The notes: a model not told the origin generated them from the sequence alone. A DNA stretch of 34,271 bases from a virus (IMGVR_UViG_2734482775_000003:1-34271), one strand, 5' to 3'. Shown: positions 1 to 12,874, counted from the first letter of the stretch. Numbers and translations: made by a program.

Positions 1-1023
1 TTATGTGGATGAAATGTGGATACCTCCTTTTAACGGATTAAGTGAAATTGCATCCTGGAGGAAATCAGGAGCGAGGTGCGCATAGGTCATAGTTTGCTGG
101 ATCGTGGCGTGCCCCATAATTCGCTGGAGCGTAAGTATATTTCCTCCATTAATCATAAAGTGAGCTGCAAAGGTATGGCGTAGAACATGTACAGCCTGCC
201 CTTTCGGTAGGTCAGGCTTAACACTGCGAAGCACCTTGCGATATTCCTCATAATTGACGTCAAACAAAAGGCCGGATTTCTTTGTTTTGATCTCACTAAC
301 AACTTCATCAGAGACAGGAATAATTCGAACTTTTCCGTTTTTAGTTTTGTTAAACGTCACGCGGTTATTGATGATGTGTTCCGCGCGCAGATTTTTCGCT
401 TCTCCCCATCTCGCACCAGTACTGAGACAAAGTAGCGTAATCCGCCGGGCATCACCGCTTACTGCATCCAGTAATTTGGCGATTTCTTCCGTGGTGAGAT
501 ACGTCATTTCGGGTGATTTTCGTTTCAAAGAGGGGAGGGCGCGGAGCGGATTTTCTCCGTGAAATTCCCCGGCATTTGCCAGGAGTGTAAACATTCCTCC
601 GAGATCCGACTCATCACGCCGAACAGTAGACTCTTTTACTCCCAAGGATAAACGGGAGCTTCGATAAGCGGCCATGAAACGAGCATTAATCTGGCTAACC
701 CTTGGATCATTCATTTCTTTGATGATTTTTTTCAACCTGGTTAGAACGCCGTTAGCATATGGCTTATTGCGTCCACCCAATTCCCACCATAACGGAAGCA
801 GATCTGAGAGATGACGTTGCTCTGTTGGCTTTTCAAGCCATTCCTTATCGTGCATGTGGCTGAGAACATAACGCTCAAAGGCCACTGCATCTGCCTTTTT
901 CTTAAAAATCCGCTGAATCCGACGTCCACTTCGGCCACGCGGTCTAACATCCACTTTATACCGTCCACCATCGAGCGCTTTAATTGCCATTGGCAAGCCC
1001 TCCGGTGAAACGAGGAAAGACAT
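1..1023 (-). CDS. int: Tyrosine integrase, P2 Int-like; stop codon is the first three bases of the window
   Basis: 340-aa ORF with C-terminal catalytic-region motifs typical of phage integrases (HVLRHTFA...H...GH...Y); sits downstream of the repressor gene on the same strand, as in P2. Confidence 0.9.
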   Translation of the reverse strand: MSFLVSPEGLPMAIKALDGGRYKVDVRPRGRSGRRIQRIFKKKADAVAFERYVLSHMHDKEWLEKPTEQRHLSDLLPLWWELGGRNKPYANGVLTRLKKIIKEMNDPRVSQINARFMAAYRSSRLSLGVKESTVRRDESDLGGMFTLLANAGEFHGENPLRALPSLKRKSPEMTYLTTEEIAKLLDAVSGDARRITLLCLSTGARWGEAKNLRAEHIINNRVTFNKTKNGKVRIIPVSDEVVSEIKTKKSGLLFDVNYEEYRKVLRSVKPDLPKGQAVHVLRHTFAAHFMINGGNILTLQRIMGHATIQQTMTYAHLAPDFLQDAISLNPLKGGIHISST

Positions 1024-3939: not shown

Positions 3940-4766
3940 AGAAATTCAAACTCTTTCAGATTCTCCCGCTTTTTGCCGCCATCCTGCTGGTTGGTTGCGA
4001 TCGCGTTGAGCCAGGTAATGTGGGAATCAAAGTCAACAAACTGGGCGACGACAAAGGCGTCGGCGAAGTAGTTGGCGTTGGCCGCTACTGGACAGGCTGG
4101 AATACAGAGGTTTACATCTTCCCGACTTTCAAACAAATGAAGACTTACGATGAGCCGTTCAACTTCCAGATGAGTGACGGCACAACCATCGGCTATCACA
4201 TCGGCGTGGCCTACAAAGTTGATCCATCCAAAGTTACCACGGTGTTTCAGACCTACCGCAAAGGCGTGGACGACATTACCGACACTGACCTGCGCCAGAA
4301 GATCGCCGACGCACTCAACCGACTGGCCAGCAAAATGACCACCGATAAATTCATCGACGGTGGCAAGTCTGAACTGCTGGATTCAGCACTTAAAGATATT
4401 CAGGCAGAAATGACACCCATCGGCATTCAGGTAATGAGCCTCTCTTATGTCGGTAAACCGGAATATCCGCCAACCGTTATCGACAGCATTAACGCCAAAG
4501 TCACGGCAAACCAGAAAACCCTGCAACGCGAACAGGAAGTAAAACAGCGCGAAGCAGAAGCCAACATGTTGCGCGCAGAAGCTGCCGGACAGGCTGATGC
4601 CATTCGCACAAAAGCCCAGGCTGAAGCCGACGCCATTCGTTTACGCGGCGAAGCTCTGCGCCAGAATCCCGGCGTTATGGAGCTGGAAGCGATCAACAAA
4701 TGGAACGGCACGCTGCCGCAATACATGACCAGTAACACCGCTGTTCCGTTCGTTCCCGTGAAGTAA
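3936..4766 (+). CDS. SPFH/band-7 (stomatin/prohibitin/HflKC-like) lipoprotein
   Basis: Lipoprotein signal with lipobox LLVGC; central SPFH-like domain followed by an Ala/Glu/Gln-rich coiled-coil (QREAEANMLRAEAAGQADAIRTKAQAEADAIRLRGEA), the usual architecture of bacterial band-7 proteins. Confidence 0.7.
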   Translation: MKKFKLFQILPLFAAILLVGCDRVEPGNVGIKVNKLGDDKGVGEVVGVGRYWTGWNTEVYIFPTFKQMKTYDEPFNFQMSDGTTIGYHIGVAYKVDPSKVTTVFQTYRKGVDDITDTDLRQKIADALNRLASKMTTDKFIDGGKSELLDSALKDIQAEMTPIGIQVMSLSYVGKPEYPPTVIDSINAKVTANQKTLQREQEVKQREAEANMLRAEAAGQADAIRTKAQAEADAIRLRGEALRQNPGVMELEAINKWNGTLPQYMTSNTAVPFVPVK

Positions 4767-4928
4767 TGACACCCGGCCAGTGCAAACCGCTGGCCGGAGC
4801 AGTATCAGGATTTTTTAGTATGCCGTTCTCACAAAAAAACCGCTTGCCATGCCGCAATCAGTCAGGTTACATTTTCGCTGCACCTCATAAAACGGGTGCC
4901 GGGTTTCGCAGCCTGCTGACTACAAGAG

Positions 4929-4958
4929 CGCACAACCGCGCCAGCGGTTTTTTTGTGC
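4929..4958 (+). terminator. Putative intrinsic terminator inside the early region
   Basis: GC hairpin CCGC-GCCA-GCGG followed by a T7 run, flanked by CGCACAA / TTGTGCG. Confidence 0.4.
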
Positions 4959-5133
4959 GTACTGTATTGCCACGTTTTTTTCGCGTCAGAATTATGGCGG
5001 GGCGTACGGGGCCGACTTCGGTCGGGCCGGGATCTCTTGTAGCCGGTACTGCGAACCTCGTACGTCTCGCCACCCACAGTTTCGCAGCTCTGGATGGTGA
5101 GCTTTCACAACTTACTACAAGAGGCCACATATC

Positions 5134-5364
5134 ATGGCAAACCGCAAACAGCACCGCGCTATCGCGGAGCGTCGTCACATCCAGACTGAAATCAACCGCA
5201 GACTTTCCCGCGCATTCCGCGTCGCTAAAATCATGCACATCAATATGCTGCATGAGCGTAGCTGCGAACTTTCAAACCTCTACTCATCCGCTGTTTTCAG
5301 TTATCTGGCGGATGATCTGCGCGAGCTTCAGCAGCTCATCCAGCAGCAAAACAAACTCCATTAA
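5134..5364 (+). CDS. Hypothetical Arg-rich small protein
   Basis: 76-aa ORF directly after the structured non-coding stretch. Confidence 0.4.
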   Translation: MANRKQHRAIAERRHIQTEINRRLSRAFRVAKIMHINMLHERSCELSNLYSSAVFSYLADDLRELQQLIQQQNKLH

Positions 5365-5436
5365 TTCCTGTTCCGGGCCTTTCCTGCACCTTGCGGCGGG
5401 AGGCCTTCGCACATCTGTAACCAGAGGATTGCCGCA

Positions 5437-5802
5437 ATGATTCTCGCCAACGACTTTCTTGAATACCTGCTCAACACAGAGCGTGATCTTGCCGTTCGCG
5501 TGCGTGAACGTTATGACATGTACCTGAAATCCCTGCCTGTACCGCAGCTCGCTGACGGAAAGATTGTTATTGATGGTCGCTACATGATTGACAGCCACGA
5601 GGGAAATTACAGGCTTTACCGCATTGAAGGTGGCACCCCGTCCGTTATTGGCATTTACCAGCGCCCATCCTCTGCAATCGTCGATGTGATTGCCGACAGC
5701 ATCCGCATCACACATCGCCATGCCGACACAGAAGACACCGTGCTGGAAATTCAGCGGCTGGCTACAGTCTGCCGCGACACCCTGAATGGCATGACGAAGT
5801 AA
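5437..5802 (+). CDS. Hypothetical protein immediately upstream of gpA
   Basis: 121-aa ORF, same strand, 6 bp before the gpA start. Confidence 0.5.
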   Translation: MILANDFLEYLLNTERDLAVRVRERYDMYLKSLPVPQLADGKIVIDGRYMIDSHEGNYRLYRIEGGTPSVIGIYQRPSSAIVDVIADSIRITHRHADTEDTVLEIQRLATVCRDTLNGMTK

Positions 5803-5808
5803 ATCACT

Positions 5809-8631
5809 ATGACGGCAGAGTACATCAGGGACTGGCAACAACCGCGCCACGCAGTAGGACGTGAAGGAACGGGGATCCCCGCACCTGAATCCGCACTTTC
5901 CTCCTGGCTGGATGCCTACCGGGCAGAGAACGAGCGCCGCCAGGAAATGGCTGACGCGGCGTTCTCCGCCACACCGCTGGGCAACCTGATTAATAAAAGC
6001 CTGGACGCACAGGAAAAGCAGGACAAAACCATCACACTGGCCAGAGAAGCCAGAAAACAGGCACGCGGTGCGGTGGATGAAGCCATGGCCTCGCTGCGCC
6101 TGCTGCCGTCCTATCTGCGCGATCCGCTTATTCGCCACCTCTCCTTCCTGCGCAAAAAACAGGAAGCCGATCGCCGGAAAGGCAAAAAGAGCTGGCAGGC
6201 GGAACGCTATGCACGCGGAACCCTGCGCAAAATATTGGAACGTCTGGCCCGCACTGACGGACGCTGGCTGACTCCGGGTTATCGCTCCCTTGCCGGACGT
6301 GAACGTCTGGACGATTTACTTTACCTGCCGCAGCTCAACAAACACCAGATACAGACACTGGCCGTCATGACGGCGGCAATGTTCAGCAGCACCTTCGAAA
6401 AACTCTGCGATGGCTTTGGCGCGACCGATGGCGAGCTGACCATGGATATAACGCTGAAGGCGTATCAGCTGCTGGCTCGCATGGCGTTACATCTGCACAC
6501 AGTGCCTCCGCATTATGACGCACTGACAACAGACAAAGACCGGAGGAACGAACCGGACACAGAACTGCTGCCGGGTGCAATCCTTCGCCTGACCTGTGCG
6601 GACTGGTGGAAACGCAAATTGTGGCTTTTACGTTGCGAATGGAGAGAGGAACAACTCCGCGCTGCCTGTCTGGTTTCCAGAAAAACATCCCCCTATCTGA
6701 GTCAGGATGCATTAAGTGAATTTCGCGCACAGCGCGAGAAAACACGCGATTTCCTGAAAAGTTTCATGCTGGAAAATGAAGACGGGTTCACGATTGATCT
6801 CGAGACGGTGTATTACGCAGGTGTCAGTAACCCGGTCCACCGTAAAGCAGAAATGATGGCCACCATGAAGGGACTGGAACTTCTGGCCGAAGCCCGTGGC
6901 GACAAAGCGGTGTTTCTGACTGTCACCTGCCCGTCAAAATACCACGCCACAACAGAGAACGGTCATCCGAATCCCAAATGGAACGGGGCCACCATGCGCG
7001 ACTCCAGCGATTACCTGGTTAACACGTTTTTTGCGGCGGTCCGCAAAAAACTGAACCGCGACGGCCTGCGCTGGTATGGCATCCGCACGGTGGAGCCTCA
7101 CCATGACGGCACCGTGCACTGGCATATGATGGTCTTTGCTCATCCGGAAGAAATCGACAGCATCGTGGCCATCACCCGCGATATTGCCATTCAGGAAGAC
7201 CGCCACGAGCTGGGCAATGATATTACTCCGCGCTTTAAGGTGGAGTACGTCGACGGCTCCAAAGGCACGCCAACCAGCTACATCGCCACCTACATCGGAA
7301 AAAACCTGGACAGCCGCGCCGTGGATGGAATCGACCCGAAAACGGGCAAACCACGCGTTGACCACGAAACCGGAAAATCAATGGCCGAGAGCGTGGAGCG
7401 CGCCATCGGCTGGGCGCGCCTTCATCGGGTCCGCCAGTTCCAGTTCTTTGGCATCCCCTCCCGTCAGGTGTGGCGTGAACTGCGCCGCCTTGCCAGCCAG
7501 ATGGCACGCAACCCGGAAGGCCCGCAACGGCTGAAGGATGACGCAATGGATGCGGTACTCGCTGCCGCTGATGCCGGATGTTTTGCCACCTACATTGAAA
7601 AACAGGGTGGCGTACTTGTTCCGCGCAAGGACTACCTGATTCGCACAGCCTACGACCTCGCAGATGAGCTGAACGATTACGGCGAACAGAGTGTACAGAT
7701 TTACGGGATCTGGTCGCCATTCATCGGGGAATCCTCCCGTGTGTGCACGCATCCGGATAACTGGAAGCTGGTAAGACGTAAACCGGAAGCGGAAGACAGC
7801 GCCCGCGAAAATGGTTTTGACCTTCAGGGCGGCCCTGCCGCCCCTTGGACTCGTGGCAATAACTGTCCCCGTGTACAGGAAACGGACAACAACGGGACAG
7901 AACAGCCGGAAGAACGGCCAGCACCGTGGCCGCAGCTCCCTGACGGCGTTGAAGTGAACGAATGGATGCGCTCACTGAAACGGCACGAACGCCGGGCGCT
8001 GATGCGTTCGCTTCGTGACAAACAGGCAAAAAACAGCAGTGATGAAATGCAGAGCTGGACACAGAGCCGCAAACAGCAGCGGCCTTTGCCTGATAACCAC
8101 GAATTACTCGCTAAAGAATGGCGGGAGTCTGCTGAATCTCTCGGCCTGCATATCGGTGAACAGCAGATGCAGCACCTGTTACGGGGCGGCAGTCTGTACG
8201 TTGACGGCAGCATCATTGCACCGCAGGGATTTGAAATTGTACGCAAACCGGATACCCGCCCGGACAGCCGAATCACGCAGCTCTGGCAACGCCTGAGCCG
8301 TAATCACGGCGTAAGCAGCACGGAGATCCGCCATAACCCGGTCGCCAGCTATCTGGAACAGCTTGGGGTATCAGACCCTGAAGCCGCCGCACGCCTGGCA
8401 TCCACACTTCAGCAAGACCAGAACACCATGAAAACACCCGTTACCGTGCTTTCTGACATGCTGCGCGCCATCCGCGACGCAGAGCACGCACAGAGAATCA
8501 GTGAAACCACTGAACGCGCCCGCCGCAAAGCAGACCTGCTGCGGGGTGGCCTGACCAGTGGAAACAAAAAACAGACAAAAACGGGATTCACAAATCCCGT
8601 AAATGAGCAAAAAACGCGCCGCGATATATGA
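5809..8631 (+). CDS. A: Rolling-circle replication initiation endonuclease, P2 gpA family (HUH relaxase-type)
   Basis: HUH-type motif TVHWHMMVFAH and paired catalytic tyrosines in SYIATYIGKN; position between the early operon and the packaging genes; about 180 aa longer than P2 gpA as I recall it. Confidence 0.9.
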   Translation: MTAEYIRDWQQPRHAVGREGTGIPAPESALSSWLDAYRAENERRQEMADAAFSATPLGNLINKSLDAQEKQDKTITLAREARKQARGAVDEAMASLRLLPSYLRDPLIRHLSFLRKKQEADRRKGKKSWQAERYARGTLRKILERLARTDGRWLTPGYRSLAGRERLDDLLYLPQLNKHQIQTLAVMTAAMFSSTFEKLCDGFGATDGELTMDITLKAYQLLARMALHLHTVPPHYDALTTDKDRRNEPDTELLPGAILRLTCADWWKRKLWLLRCEWREEQLRAACLVSRKTSPYLSQDALSEFRAQREKTRDFLKSFMLENEDGFTIDLETVYYAGVSNPVHRKAEMMATMKGLELLAEARGDKAVFLTVTCPSKYHATTENGHPNPKWNGATMRDSSDYLVNTFFAAVRKKLNRDGLRWYGIRTVEPHHDGTVHWHMMVFAHPEEIDSIVAITRDIAIQEDRHELGNDITPRFKVEYVDGSKGTPTSYIATYIGKNLDSRAVDGIDPKTGKPRVDHETGKSMAESVERAIGWARLHRVRQFQFFGIPSRQVWRELRRLASQMARNPEGPQRLKDDAMDAVLAAADAGCFATYIEKQGGVLVPRKDYLIRTAYDLADELNDYGEQSVQIYGIWSPFIGESSRVCTHPDNWKLVRRKPEAEDSARENGFDLQGGPAAPWTRGNNCPRVQETDNNGTEQPEERPAPWPQLPDGVEVNEWMRSLKRHERRALMRSLRDKQAKNSSDEMQSWTQSRKQQRPLPDNHELLAKEWRESAESLGLHIGEQQMQHLLRGGSLYVDGSIIAPQGFEIVRKPDTRPDSRITQLWQRLSRNHGVSSTEIRHNPVASYLEQLGVSDPEAAARLASTLQQDQNTMKTPVTVLSDMLRAIRDAEHAQRISETTERARRKADLLRGGLTSGNKKQTKTGFTNPVNEQKTRRDI
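8577..8606. repeat. Palindromic 30-bp repeat, copy 1 (inside the gpA 3' end)
   Basis: caaaaACGGGATTcacaAATCCCGTaaa, internal palindrome ACGGGA/TCCCGT. Confidence 0.6.
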
Positions 8632-8649
8632 AGCGCGCATAAAACAGGC

Positions 8650-8680
8650 AAAAACGGGATTTCAGAATCCCGTAAACGAT
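8650..8680. repeat. Palindromic 30-bp repeat, copy 2 (upstream of parM); candidate operator or centromere element
   Basis: Near-identical to copy 1 (caaaaACGGGATTtcagAATCCCGTaaa), about 73 bp centre to centre. Confidence 0.6.
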
Positions 8681-8707
8681 TAATTAATCAACATAAGGAA
8701 AAACGAC

Positions 8708-9667
8708 ATGAAAATTTGTATCGACGACGGCTCCACCAACATCAAGCTGGCATGGACTGAGAACGGCGAACGCCGCAACGCCATCAGCCCGAACAGCTTC
8801 AAGTCGGAATGGTCTGCGCCGTTCTGTGGCACGCAGCCCGCGAACTATATGCTTGATGGCGTGCGCTATGGTTTTGATCCGGTCAGCGATCGCTTTGTCC
8901 AGACGACCGACACGCAATACCAGTACAGCGATGTGAATGTCATTGCCATTCATCACGCGCTGGTCAAATCAGGCATCACGCCACAGGAGGTGGATGTGGT
9001 TGTCACCCTGCCACTGAGCGAGTATTTCGACACAAACGCACAGCCGGACATGACCAACATCAACCGCAAAAAAGCGAACGTTATGCGCCCGGTGGAGTAC
9101 CAGAACGGCGAAGCATTCACTATCCGTAACGTACGGGTTATGCCTGAATCCATTCCGGCTGGCTTTAAGGCACTGGCTGACATGAGTCCGTTTGAATCCC
9201 TGCTGATTGTGGATTTGGGCGGAACCACGCTGGATGTGGCAAAGGTTCAGGGGCAACTGGCAGGTATCAGCCAGATGTTTTGCGATCCACACGTAGGCGT
9301 TTCTCTGATGGCCGATGCCGTACTGTCGGTGATGGCCACTAACGGTATGCGCACCAGTCACCACATCGCCAATACCATTATCGAACATCGCCATGATGAA
9401 GCCTGGCTGCGCCAGCACATCCACAATGACGCGCATTACGCCAGCCTGATGGCGGTTATTCGTGAAAAGGAAGAAACACTGAAACAACGCGTGATCCGCG
9501 CGCTGGCGGGTTTTTCGGGTTACGGGCGGGTGATGGTTGTCGGTGGCGGGGCGGAGATTGTGGCACCCGCTATCCGCGAAGCCTGCGGAGTTAATGCGAC
9601 TTTCATCGCGGACGGGGTGCCACAGTTTGCTCTGGTTAATGGGCTGTACGCAATGGACAAGGAGTAA
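8708..9667 (+). CDS. parM: ParM/StbA-family actin-like segregation ATPase
   Basis: N-terminus MKICIDDGSTNIKLAW, plus YSDVNVIAIHHAL, VMPESIPAGF, LLIVDLGGTTLDV and GYGRVMVVGGGAE, all closely matching plasmid R1 ParM motifs as recalled. Confidence 0.85.
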   Translation: MKICIDDGSTNIKLAWTENGERRNAISPNSFKSEWSAPFCGTQPANYMLDGVRYGFDPVSDRFVQTTDTQYQYSDVNVIAIHHALVKSGITPQEVDVVVTLPLSEYFDTNAQPDMTNINRKKANVMRPVEYQNGEAFTIRNVRVMPESIPAGFKALADMSPFESLLIVDLGGTTLDVAKVQGQLAGISQMFCDPHVGVSLMADAVLSVMATNGMRTSHHIANTIIEHRHDEAWLRQHIHNDAHYASLMAVIREKEETLKQRVIRALAGFSGYGRVMVVGGGAEIVAPAIREACGVNATFIADGVPQFALVNGLYAMDKE

Positions 9668-9671
9668 ACCA

Positions 9672-9986
9672 ATGACGACACCAACCAGACGGATAAGTTT
9701 CTATCTGAAGCCAGTCGCCGTCAATAGTGAACGGGAGGCGTGTAATTACCTCGACAGCCTGCCAGCCTCTGAACGCAGCCGCGCGCAACGCGCGGCCTTT
9801 CTGGCCGGGCTGGCACTCATAAAACGCGATCCTGCATTTGCCTATTGGTTGGCCGAATGGCCGGAAGAAGGAGCTGCGCCAGCCAAGAATAATATTCAGA
9901 GTAAATATGCCAGCGCACCTGCCACCGGAAGCAATCACAGCACTAGCGAGATAAGAAAGAACATTCAGTCATTTTTCCCAGAGTGA
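9672..9986 (+). CDS. parR: ParR/StbB-family centromere-binding adaptor
   Basis: N-terminal region RRISFYLKPV...DSLPASERSRAQRAAFLAGLAL parallels R1 ParR (DSIPQGERSRLNRAALTAGLAL); AAGGAG RBS; directly follows parM as in par operons. Confidence 0.75.
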   Translation: MTTPTRRISFYLKPVAVNSEREACNYLDSLPASERSRAQRAAFLAGLALIKRDPAFAYWLAEWPEEGAAPAKNNIQSKYASAPATGSNHSTSEIRKNIQSFFPE

Positions 9987-10005
9987 AAACAGGAGAGGAG
10001 CATCT

Positions 10006-10437
10006 ATGGCAACTATCCCCAAAAAATGGTTACAACGCAAAATTGCAGACCTTGAATCGTGTCGTGAAGACATCCCGTTTGGCCTTGATGAAAACGATCA
10101 CAATATGTTAATCGCACTGAAAATCGCACTCACATCGCTGGAAGCGAAACCTGTTGCATGGACTGATGATGAGGAACTGCGTGATGTCAAGCAGTATGGT
10201 TTCGGTGAGATATTTCAGTGTCCGCCAGATAAATACGCGGACCCGCGACGTGTTATCCCTATGTATCGAGAGCCGCCAGCGCCAGCAGTACCAGATGGAC
10301 TGGTTAGAGCGGTGCGTTTCTATGAACAGGTAAAGCGTGAGAATCCGCCAGTCGAAACTGGAGTATGGAAAGACGCTATTGACTGGGTGACCAAAGAGGC
10401 TTGCCAAGCTGTAGACATTGGCATCAAAGGAGAGTGA
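10006..10437 (+). CDS. Hypothetical protein, co-operonic with parMR
   Basis: Strong RBS AGGAGAGGAG before the ATG; 143 aa; no motif recognised. Confidence 0.55.
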   Translation: MATIPKKWLQRKIADLESCREDIPFGLDENDHNMLIALKIALTSLEAKPVAWTDDEELRDVKQYGFGEIFQCPPDKYADPRRVIPMYREPPAPAVPDGLVRAVRFYEQVKRENPPVETGVWKDAIDWVTKEACQAVDIGIKGE

Positions 10438-10438
10438 T

Positions 10439-10702
10439 ATGGCAACTTTGACAAAAAAAGAACAAGCATGGTTGAGCGAATTACAGGACGTTCTTGATCG
10501 CTGTCCATCACCGAAAAAAATTGGTTTTTACACCATTGGCGATAAAAACATTTACCTGTATGACCTACGCCGCATGGATGAAATCATGGAGGCTCTTGAT
10601 AATCGTTCGTCAATGGATTGGTGTGTTGCTGTCCATGATATGAATGCAGGGTTTGATGAAAAGATTTTGTTCCCCTCATCAGTTGAAAGCACAGCAGGAT
10701 AA
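10439..10702 (+). CDS. Hypothetical protein, co-operonic with parMR
   Basis: ATG 1 bp after the upstream stop; 87 aa; followed by a terminator. Confidence 0.5.
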   Translation: MATLTKKEQAWLSELQDVLDRCPSPKKIGFYTIGDKNIYLYDLRRMDEIMEALDNRSSMDWCVAVHDMNAGFDEKILFPSSVESTAG

Positions 10703-10736
10703 GGACCCAGCCAATATACACAACCTATAAAACACT

Positions 10737-10763
10737 AAAGCGCCTCAGGGGCGCTTTTTGTTT
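10737..10763 (+). terminator. Intrinsic terminator closing the parMR-orf143-orf87 operon
   Basis: Hairpin GCGCC-tcagg-GGCGC followed by TTTTTGTTT. Confidence 0.7.
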
Positions 10764-10789
10764 GCACAAAAGTGCACAAATTTGCACAA
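10763..10789. repeat. Three direct TGCACAA repeats at 10-bp phasing
   Basis: tTTGCACAAaaGTGCACAAatTTGCACAAttttttt; helical-turn spacing suggests an array of protein-binding sites. Confidence 0.5.
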
Positions 10790-11288
10790 TTTTTTTGAAC
10801 GACTTTTTACCCTTCCGGCCCGCATGGCGGCTGGATCCGTCAAGGATCCGTGCGTGCACAAAAAAACGCGCTTTTTCTGCGCGCAGGTGACGGGGGAACA
10901 GCCCGCGTTTCAGGGGGTAAACAGCATTCCCTGAACGATGTCGCAGCGACACAACGGAATGGCTGTCTTTCTCTCGCTGAGCGTGAAAAATACGTGAGGG
11001 CTTTTGATTTGATGGGGTGACTGATAAGGCCGTCAAAATCGCACTGAGGCGACGAGAACATGCAGTCAGCACGGCGGGATTGCGTAAGAGCCTGACCGTC
11101 GATGATGACAATAAGCTGGAAGGCGTCGTGAAATTATCTGATTGATACAGGAGCTGGAGAGTCGGGGCATAAATTTTTTATGCCCCGGCGAAGCAGCAGA
11201 CAAGCGAAGCGCGTCAGCGATACGGCACCTTGCCGACCATACTTCATAAGTGCAAAATACGAGCAAAGAAATCAATGGAGGCTGTCTT

Positions 11289-11813
11289 ATGGTCATTAAT
11301 TACAAGCAGTTAAGAGAAAAACGGGAGCAGGTAAAGGAGAGCTTTCGCCGCAATGAAGATCTGACCCCGCTTGTACGCCTTGCCCAGGGCATTGTTGATG
11401 CTTATGAAATCTCGCTGGAGCTGCCATCACAGACCTGGACAGATAGCGACGGTAATCGCCAGCATTACGTTTCATGTGGACTGGAAGCAGCCGAAGGATT
11501 TCGCAGAATGCCTTTATCCCAGATCCCTGCCGCTACCCCCAAAGCACGAGGCAGCAATGATGAGCGAAAACTGACTTTTAGTATTGAAACGGTGGTTGAC
11601 GACACACCTGGCGAAGTCGCGTTCGTACACACTCCTGTTTCGATCGCAATGTATAACGATGAAATACAGGTTCGCGTTAATAATAATATCGTGCCACTTA
11701 AAGAAGGTAATTCACCCTACACCACCGTTTGTGAAGCCATTCAATATTACGTTCTCTCTGAAATTGATAATCTCAAGCCTGACGGCACCCAGAAAATGGT
11801 TCAACTCTGGTAA
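11289..11813 (+). CDS. Hypothetical protein (about 174 aa), orphan accessory gene between hotspot and portal
   Basis: ATG at 11289 in frame with track ORF 11250..11813; followed by a strong terminator; no motif recognised. Confidence 0.5.
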   Translation: MVINYKQLREKREQVKESFRRNEDLTPLVRLAQGIVDAYEISLELPSQTWTDSDGNRQHYVSCGLEAAEGFRRMPLSQIPAATPKARGSNDERKLTFSIETVVDDTPGEVAFVHTPVSIAMYNDEIQVRVNNNIVPLKEGNSPYTTVCEAIQYYVLSEIDNLKPDGTQKMVQLW

Positions 11814-11845
11814 AAAGGACAGCCCCATCACGGGGCTGTTTTTTC
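11813..11845. terminator. Bidirectional intrinsic terminator between orf175 and portal Q
   Basis: A-run, hairpin ACAGCCCC-atca-GGGGCTGT, T6 run; overlaps the Q 3' end. Confidence 0.7.
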
Positions 11846-12874
11846 ATCAAGAAGAGCATAAGAGTTAAAACGGATCACCTCTTCGCCAAGCCAGTCATTG
11901 ATGTGCTTCATAGCCTCCATGACGGGCATCAGCTCGTTAATTGCGTAAACCCGCGCGGCCTTCTCCACATCACCAAACGCACTTTTTTCGCCCGGCATCG
12001 CCCCCATCAGTTGCGGCGGAACGCGGTGCGCAGCCAGCACATCATCACGGGATGCCGCCTTAACATTCATGAACTCATCTTTTGCGGTGATCTGCTGGAA
12101 CGGCAAAATTTGCACCCCCTCTTTGCCCCCGTTGGGCGCATGAATGAGCACGTTTTTAAACGCACCACCACCACGTGCCCCCTGTAGCGTTTCTTTCAGG
12201 GAGTCCATGCTTTCGCGGTTTACCTGCGCTGCACCGATGTAGATGATGCACCCGGCGTGGGATCCGTTGTCGTAGTACAGTTTTCTGAACATGTCCGCCG
12301 AATGAGACAGGCTGGCCGAGAGTAATGCGCCAAGATATTCCGGCATGCCGTAGATTTCCTGGTTAATGTCCGGATTCATCAGGTGGCACACTTTGCCAGG
12401 GCGAAACTGGAACGCGTCCTTGCCATCATGCACATACCACCATGATTCAAGATCGCTTCCGCGTCGCATGTATTTCGCCAGGGCGTGCCGTAATTTAAGT
12501 GGTTCGCCGAGCATATTGCTTCGAAGCTCAAGGAATGCGTTACCGAACACAAACCAGTCCAGCGCCAGCGCCGAGAAATCCTGCCGGGAAAGCAGCGGGT
12601 GCGGGATGTAGCAACCGAGTAATACATTGCGCTTAAAGTAAAGCGCAGACTGATGCCAGGACGTTTGCCGGGCAGCTCTTGCCAGACCGTACCAGTCCAC
12701 CGGGGTTTCATACCACCGCCCGTTATCAGCACAGTACATATTGTCCAGCAGGTCATGCCCGGTCAGGCGATAAGGACCATCAAATGTGAATGCACTGAGC
12801 GATGATTCTTTCCTGAGCGCATCAGCGAGATCAATGCGTGAACTCATGCGCACTTTTTTATTTTTTCTGCTCAT
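11828..12874 (-). CDS. Q: Portal (capsid vertex) protein, P2 gpQ family
   Basis: 348 aa; position and orientation (leftward, adjacent to terminase ATPase) as in P2; recognised by overall similarity to P2 gpQ. Confidence 0.85.
   Translation of the reverse strand: MSRKNKKVRMSSRIDLADALRKESSLSAFTFDGPYRLTGHDLLDNMYCADNGRWYETPVDWYGLARAARQTSWHQSALYFKRNVLLGCYIPHPLLSRQDFSALALDWFVFGNAFLELRSNMLGEPLKLRHALAKYMRRGSDLESWWYVHDGKDAFQFRPGKVCHLMNPDINQEIYGMPEYLGALLSASLSHSADMFRKLYYDNGSHAGCIIYIGAAQVNRESMDSLKETLQGARGGGAFKNVLIHAPNGGKEGVQILPFQQITAKDEFMNVKAASRDDVLAAHRVPPQLMGAMPGEKSAFGDVEKAARVYAINELMPVMEAMKHINDWLGEEVIRFNSYALLDEKTAP

Follow-up and report, generated by a model that had tools for sequence, protein, structure and literature searches.

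SrpMRC, a type II-like partition locus of the SXT/R391 integrative and conjugative elements (ICEs) with four 13-bp repeats upstream of its M gene, is expressed only upon activation of the element and has been shown experimentally to stabilise the excised, rolling-circle-replicating form as well as a single-copy plasmid (PMC4489591). The AlpC/AlpA/alpS system of the Corynebacterium glutamicum prophage CGP3 is induced early and is needed for efficient replication of the phage DNA (PMC4446434, PMC5539076). In P2-like phages, the interval between the replication gene gpA and the portal gene is a known defence hotspot (PMC9122126), and a plasmid-like state has already been suggested for the plasmid-type partition module considered here (Rousset et al., 2022, PMC9122126; Pfeifer et al., 2021, PMC7969092), which is known from annotation and from publications in about a quarter of Escherichia coli P2-like prophages. 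Phage P88, which carries this module, is integrated in strain K88 and is induced by mitomycin C (PMC5285337). The current study describes the module in a stretch of viral DNA of 34,271 nucleotides (IMGVR_UViG_2734482775_000003:1-34271), the whole of which is referred to as the window. The window is a complete P2-like prophage, running from a tyrosine integrase to a C-type helix-turn-helix repressor, Cox, gpA, portal, terminase and structural genes, and the phage is a P88-like (Xuanwuvirus) prophage. Its parM and parR genes lie between gpA and the portal gene, where P2 carries orf91, tin and old, and thus in the gpA-Q interval in which the initial annotation had placed them. New to the current study are the linkage of the module to one gpA allele, the apparent phage-specific grouping of ParM over five genera, a conserved two-site architecture that overlaps gpA and comes without a recognisable promoter of its own, and the deep allelism of parR.

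Our results suggest that the locus is a functional type II (ParM/ParR/parC) segregation module, conserved by lineage in the replication operon of P88-like phages and of other P2-like phages of enterobacteria, which on balance probably acts on transient phage circles and not in the maintenance of a plasmid prophage. All three parts, ParM, ParR and parC, are evident at the sequence level, and the binding of the sites and the pushing of DNA are attributed to them by homology with ParMRC of plasmid R1. The peptide motifs from which the two proteins had been recognised are all present in the open reading frames (ORFs), and profile searches bore out the type II identity. In Pfam, ParM residues 1-157 correspond to StbA_N (PF06406, 1.1e-81) and residues 159-316 to the ParM C-terminal domain (PF21523, 3.7e-68), while a phmmer search against the PDB matched residues 2-316 to crystal and cryo-electron microscopy chains of R1 ParM (1mwk) with an E value of 2.4e-91. 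The nucleotide-binding motifs IDDGSTNIKL, MPESIPAG, DLGGTTLD and GGGAE are kept, with the phosphate-1, catalytic, phosphate-2 and adenosine motifs all conserved, and ParM is thereby an actin-fold ATPase with intact nucleotide-binding motifs, as type II partition requires.

Type II partition also requires the gene of a small ribbon-helix-helix (RHH) adaptor immediately 3' of parM, and a predicted one is present. Its start is the ATG lying 4 nt past the parM stop, and not the TTG of a mechanically called ORF at 9537. The protein matches Plasmid_stab_B (PF10784, the StbB/ParR family) at 3.8e-25 and 88 bits, for a cut-off of 25, and the pB171 ParR structure 2jd3 at 0.0047 when searched alone and at 2.5e-13 when a profile of ParRs was used. 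Alignment with plasmid ParRs resolves an N-terminal RHH region, a hypervariable linker and the conserved C-terminal tail KNIQSFFPE. This tail, of the form [KR]xN[IA]xx[LF][FI]P, can be aligned with the C-terminal ends of plasmid ParRs, those of the R1 type among them, and N97 is invariant in all nine sequences (9/9); in R1-type ParR the corresponding tail KKNAMKLIN serves as the ParM-binding peptide. Besides, the beta strand R-[RK]-[IV]-S-F-Y-L is shared by ParRs of the phage group, and plasmid ParRs have a different one.

Upstream of parM, the initial annotation had reported two 30-bp palindromic repeats flanking a likely promoter. Two copies are indeed present, but they are 42-nt direct repeats, 83% identical, each holding a perfect 8-4-8 (20-bp) palindrome, ACGGGATT-N4-AATCCCGT, with starts 73 bp apart, and copy 1 lies inside the coding sequence of gpA and is not intergenic (Table 1). 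The palindrome did not occur elsewhere in the 34-kb window even at 3 mismatches (0.11 matches expected by chance), and no degenerate ACGGGATT half-sites were found in 8450-8760 past the four perfect ones. A-tracts are phased at about 10-11 nt, which is suggestive only. In 11 P88-like loci the core arms CGGGATT/AATCCCG of site 2 are invariant, with variation in a few of them at the outermost arm positions, 8654-8655, and in the loop.

Table 1. Position of the partition module and of related features in the window.
Feature	Position	Strand	Basis or remark
Integrase (tyrosine)	1..1023	minus	PF24624 and PF00589
gpA, rolling-circle replication initiator	5809..8631	plus	PF05840, 4e-129
Predicted ori nick region, inside gpA	~7843-7866		GCCCCTTGGACTCGTGGCAATAACTGT, by likeness to the P2 ori nick region GCGCCTCGGAGTCCTGTCAATAACTGT
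Repeat copy 1, putative parC site 1	8565..8606	plus	palindrome ACGGGATTCACAAATCCCGT at 8581-8600; in the last 22 codons of gpA
Repeat copy 2, putative parC site 2	8638..8679	plus	palindrome ACGGGATTTCAGAATCCCGT at 8654-8673; 35 nt 5' of the parM start
Leader	8680..8707	plus	conserved TTAATCAA box and Shine-Dalgarno AAGGA
parM, actin-fold ATPase, filament former	8708..9667	plus	319 amino acids; Pfam, R1 ParM structures, phrog_691
parR, predicted RHH centromere-binding adaptor	9672..9986	plus	104 amino acids; PF10784, phrog_2515
Three small ORFs 3' of parR	10006-10702 and 11250-11813		phrog_660, phrog_1714, phrog_5091; function not assigned by family
Intrinsic terminator, strong bidirectional hairpin	10737..10757	plus	9-bp stem with 5 G-C pairs, then TTGTTT
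Portal gene	11828..12874	minus	module lies between gpA and this gene

Because the P88-like region is too uniform to show extra conservation, we relied on a comparison across genera for the putative centromere. Counted from the parM ATG, sites occur at -126 and -53 in the window, from E. coli (CGGGATTCACAAATCCCG and CGGGATTTCAGAATCCCG), at -132 and -60 in Plesiomonas (L017; CGGGACAACAAAAACCCG and CGGGACAACACTAACCCA) and at -129 and -56 in Hafnia (L018; TGGGATTGAGGAAACCCA and CGGGTTCATTAAATCCCA). Each of these loci thus carries two YGGG-N10-CCCR sites (YGGGH-N8-DCCCR) 72-73 bp apart, which extends the arrangement to three genera, and site 1 falls within the end of gpA in the Plesiomonas phage as in the window. 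The inner bases of the sites are alike between the two copies of one phage and unlike between phages. In all three loci the TTAATCAA box follows site 2, though the ParMs of L017 and L018 are only 61-62% identical to that of the window. In a second ParR subgroup, comprising phages of Serratia and Enterobacter (L020, L021 and L030), a single long inverted repeat stands instead of the two sites (YGGGAACxAxATAGAAAAAT, then 26-28 nt, then ATTTTTCTxTTTC). The comparison was made over the loci with upstream DNA, which the contigs of L028 and L029 do not include. The upstream symmetric elements thus change along with the ParR type, as expected of ParR binding sites, and the two palindromes of the window are likely a two-site centromere (parC). 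Cis-acting repeated sites just upstream of parM, as type II partition requires, are therefore present in a design unlike the R1 iterons, and the phage centromere would be of a different and much smaller kind than those of R1-type systems.

The proposal that the repeats flank a promoter gained no support from a crude consensus scan of 8300-10100, which showed no sigma-70 consensus promoter, including between and after the repeat copies. Among candidates picked by hand, the best (TTTCAG-17-ATTAAT) agrees with the consensus at 8 of 12 positions and shows no conservation in L017, and the others are weak and not conserved either. No plus-strand terminator was found between gpA and parM; from about 5031 to 10737, terminator-like matches on this strand are limited to a pair of weak 5-bp stems within parM (9257 and 9439). 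With no promoter found and no strong plus-strand terminator before 10737, gpA, parM, parR and two small ORFs appear to form a single transcription unit, gpA-parM-parR-orf143-orf94, which the strong bidirectional hairpin following them probably ends. Further upstream, a terminator-like hairpin at 4934-4949, followed by TTTTTTG, and a promoter-like TTGCCA-17-AATTAT at 4967-4995 precede the gene of a 'derepression protein' (5134..5364); the region of this promoter-like site may be the start of the transcription unit holding gpA and parMR.

The initial annotation had considered the module a non-standard function of such a phage and a cargo of the variable hotspot, neither of which agrees with its distribution. 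DNA of 8400-10000 is 94-99% identical to P88, phiSM, 520873 and 11 more phage records, in which it is annotated as ParM or partition protein; PHROGs lists both ParM (phrog_691) and ParR (phrog_2515) as 'partition protein' families, and this same module is carried by about 23% of complete E. coli genomes. A query made of the gpA 3' end and the parM 5' half matched 1373 genomes, 1277 of them over both parts (out of 5426 complete E. coli genomes), and all the relatives with 54-62% ParM identity, from four other genera, hold the same position between Phage_GPA and Phage_portal genes, each followed by a PF10784 protein. Therefore, parMR shows tight linkage to one gpA allele and is not a cargo that phages exchange freely. 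Among the about 96 exceptions to the linkage, L011 has a different gpA tail with other cargo after it, whereas L010, a P88-like prophage (NZ_CP115358.1, locus 4541-4780), has the same gpA allele without parMR and keeps copy 1 inside gpA. In the latter, homology stops just past the gpA stop and a frameshifted ead/Ea22-like gene stands in place of parMR, which looks as if the module had been replaced through a recombination joint lying between the two repeats.

The ParM sequences suggest a phage-specific grouping. In the plasmid collection, ParMs were either at least 95% identical to that of the window, being the prophage itself, or at most 52% identical (more than 5000 plasmids), and none fell between 52% and 95%. 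The intermediates, from Plesiomonas, Hafnia, Serratia and Enterobacter, came from a large protein collection, while relatives at 48-52% identity occur in plasmid or ICE contexts with Rep3, ParA, UmuDC or TraG/TraU. In a neighbour-joining tree the ParMs of P2-like phages fell together, apart from IncF, R1-type, D6, plasmid and ICE ParMs, a grouping that is indicative only, as the tree carries no bootstrap. The diverged relatives were taken from the protein-homologue search and their contigs, a contig scan with the single ParM having returned only 3 near-identical loci. One ParM 98% identical to that of the window is found in a contig labelled 'Vagococcus sp. WN89Y', a Firmicute (L004, NZ_JBQPOM010000071.1), which is probably contaminating enterobacterial DNA in that assembly.

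Both genes of the module are intact and under purifying selection. For parM of P88-like phages, the mean ratio of nonsynonymous to synonymous divergence (dN/dS) is about 0.075, indicating strong purifying selection, with synonymous divergence (dS) of 0.05-0.09, and for the RHH region of parR the ratio is 0.04-0.15 within one allelic type. Across the same phages, parR is far more diverged than parM. Synonymous divergence in the RHH region is 0.35-0.47 among members of one allelic type and rises to 0.77 when the two types are compared, one made up of the window, L003 and L012 and the other of P88, L002, L013, L015 and L026. DNA homology among P88-like phages breaks within parR, at 9724, 9817 or 9862, and the variable hotspot in effect starts inside this gene.

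In the mechanism we favour, ParR dimers would bind the two symmetric YGGG-N10-CCCR sites through the N-terminal RHH region (beta strand RRISFYL), the bound sites lying 72-73 bp, or about seven helical turns, apart and straddling the end of gpA. Through its conserved C-terminal tail, ParR would then capture the ends of ATP-ParM filaments, and filament growth would push two phage DNA circles apart. The most likely substrate is the transient extrachromosomal circle arising from gpA-driven replication after infection or induction, because the phage encodes an integrase and occurs nearly always in integrated form, and because parMR lies behind gpA with no promoter or terminator between them. Spreading of the circles to both cell halves or daughters could reduce their loss before integration (abortive lysogeny) and keep replication organised. 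The payoff might be either inheritance and the establishment of lysogeny or the organisation of replication, action on transient circles being what we favour. More broadly, and tentatively, it seems quite possible that integrating P2-like phages carry in their ParMR an old branch of type II systems specific to phages, whose minimal two-site centromere overlaps gpA at its end. The module would be expressed together with the replication genes and serve the circular stage, in the establishment of lysogeny or the organisation of replication, and not plasmid maintenance; the deeply diverged parR alleles beside a near-invariant parM would in that case be a product of selection against cross-talk among prophages sharing a host.

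Several observations weigh against action on transient circles or against the proposed centromere. Site 1 is an imperfect palindrome in P88 (ACGGGACTCACGAATCCCGC), and conservation of the palindromes within the 11 P88-like loci has little power, the whole region being 95-99% identical. Two binding sites are few beside the 10 iterons of R1, as observed in L008. The crude promoter scan could have missed a weak ParR-regulated promoter of the kind present in R1, in which case the system would be on in lysogens. Moreover, excision of P2 needs Cox, which is expressed with the lytic genes, and this makes it hard to place the period in which segregating the circles would pay off. In the literature searched we found no study of ParR binding, filament formation, phenotype or function for this module.

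An unlikely, yet arguable, explanation is that the module serves the lytic cycle alone, with ParM filaments moving replicating phage DNA to a favourable site such as the membrane or a pole, or dispersing monomeric circles for packaging, in the manner of AlpC/AlpA/alpS and with no role in inheritance. The position of parMR directly behind gpA, in the same transcription unit, would suit such a role, and AlpAC, which is induced early and binds repeats upstream of its own operon, halves the phage copy number when lost (PMC4446434). However, ParM is about 50% identical to plasmid ParMs that segregate DNA and the ParR tail is kept, which makes bipolar pushing the default expectation, and the argument made for CGP3 is not transferable because MreB is present in E. 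coli.

That the module allows stable persistence of the phage as a low-copy plasmid prophage in place of integration, for example where attB is absent or occupied, is the reading of Rousset et al. (2022), Pfeifer et al. (2021) and the initial annotation, which had proposed maintenance as an episome; we consider it improbable. It draws on the plasmid type of the module, on the 47% identical StbA/StbB pair of the true plasmid-prophage D6 and on a circular PLSDB 'plasmid' of 34,461 bp (NZ_CP148288.1, L002) that is a whole P88-like genome. Such a phage-plasmid would be autonomous, usually unintegrated and found on plasmid records, but in complete E. coli genomes, where PGAP names the module in 1370 of 5426 (about a quarter) and up to 3 copies occur per genome, the module was chromosomal in 1531 of 1533 places. 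The 7 PLSDB matches are for the most part in records of 0.23-1.4 Mb, not phage-sized replicons, L002 being the sole phage-sized circular record found, and an integrase is present in L002 as it is in the window. Replication is gpA-dependent, and in P2 gene A belongs to an early operon repressed by C (P2 annotation and established P2 biology), so that a repressed prophage would not replicate as a plasmid. As for L002 itself, an excised or packaged genome also assembles as a 34-kb circular contig and could equally be the source of this circle as a true episome. A parR-cargo region 99.9% identical to that of L002 occurs in integrated form in the chromosome of Z1323HEC0067, another strain of the same study; regarding an integrated copy in strain Z1323PEC0009, neither the circle record nor a chromosome of this strain was among the 40 matches listed.

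It is very unlikely that the module is a conflict cargo, acting in anti-phage defence or as centromere-based incompatibility against plasmids or rival P2-like phages. The interval is a known defence hotspot (PMC9122126), and the deeply diverged allelic types of parR, with their hypervariable linker, are of the kind that conflict might give. A defence cargo would belong to a known defence family and be freely exchanged, but ParM, ParR and the neighbouring ORFs gave no PADLOC match, the linkage to gpA and the shared position across genera are unlike swapped cargo, and both the ParR beta strand and the repeats are unlike those of plasmid systems, which makes cross-binding unlikely. Hardly any weight can be given to the palindromes being leftward (minus-strand) intrinsic terminators or gpA- or ori-related elements instead of a centromere: on the minus strand each forms an 8-bp hairpin followed by TTTTTG (-10.4 to -10.7 kcal/mol, z about -3), and copy 1 stays with gpA where parMR is absent (L010), but the Plesiomonas and Hafnia sites keep YGGG-N10-CCCR and the 72-73 bp spacing while losing the tight hairpin and T run (L017 copy 1: -4.6 kcal/mol, z -0.3), no minus-strand gene reads into the region, and the nick sequence of P2 type is situated about 715 nt 5' of copy 1. 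The terminator reading was consequently rejected for want of a conserved hairpin and T run in L017 or L018, and the ori reading on account of the nick sequence at about 7843-7866.

The gpA of the window has 940 amino acids compared with 761 in P2, and its residues 77-800 are 30% identical to residues 42-740 of P2 A (BLASTP); it carries a lineage-specific C-terminal extension of about 140 amino acids, the last codons of which hold repeat copy 1. The P2 nick position used for comparison with the predicted nick region was 29892. The three small ORFs 3' of parR (phrog_660, phrog_1714 and phrog_5091) had no match in Pfam, NCBIfam or PADLOC and, because they differ from one P88-like phage to another, are the true variable cargo of the hotspot. 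Between 10725 and 11250 there are about 500 nt without a convincing gene, overlapped only by mechanical ORFs, which may be the site of the cos region. Additional terminator-like hairpins were seen at 10772-10787 and, on the minus strand, at 10884-10866.

The occurrence of a plasmid-type actin segregation machine inside an integrated prophage in about a quarter of complete E. coli genomes would have consequences whichever way it acts. If it works on short-lived circles, temperate phages, like ICEs, would use active partition against loss before integration or after excision, and the two sites would also offer a very small natural centromere for studying the capture of ParM by ParR. If it instead sustains a plasmid state, P2-like phages would have to be regarded as facultative phage-plasmids, with a bearing on gene flow and on how prophages are detected.

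Compared with described systems, the module is the same as that of P88/Xuanwuvirus (ParM/ParR, NC_026014 gp17/gp18), named 'plasmid segregation protein ParM' and 'plasmid partitioning/stability family protein' by PGAP. The ParMs are 98-99% identical and the position after gpA and the upstream repeats are shared, whereas the window has a different parR allele (about 55% identical to P88 ParR), a perfect palindrome at site 1 where that of P88 is imperfect, and different downstream genes. With ParMRC of R1/NR1 (StbA/StbB) it has in common the order parC-parM-parR, a ParM that aligns over its full length with all ATPase motifs, and a ParR of the RHH family (PF10784) with an aligned C-terminal tail (KKNAMKLIN in the R1 type). 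However, its ParM is only 46-52% identical to plasmid ParMs, its ParR has 104 amino acids instead of 116 and is without a middle segment, and its putative centromere consists of a pair of 20-bp palindromes with starts 73 bp apart, where the R1-type plasmid L008 shows, on the same analysis, 2 x 5 direct 11-bp iterons on either side of a TTGACA promoter, no promoter being recognisable in the module; besides, the host replicon is an integrating phage. The plasmid-prophage D6 (NC_050154, P1-like) also has a phage-borne StbA/StbB pair of the same Pfam families, but D6 is a true plasmid prophage of 91 kb, its ParM, at 47% identity, groups with plasmid ParMs on the tree, and its upstream repeats (TCTCAAAT...) differ from those of the window. 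CGP3 resembles the window as an integrated prophage with an actin-like filament former and an adaptor binding repeats upstream of the operon, and differs in its unrelated actin-like family, its actinobacterial host and the transport to the membrane, not bipolar segregation, that has been proposed for it. SrpMRC, for its part, is a partition locus with few repeats in a normally chromosomal element that uses a rolling-circle initiator once excised, although its proteins are only distantly related to ParM, SrpR is without a recognisable ParR domain, and the locus belongs to an ICE, not a phage, and adjoins int, not a replication gene. Even so, srpMRC is the closest experimentally studied parallel to the module of P2-like phages, with AlpAC as a second parallel for replication and positioning.

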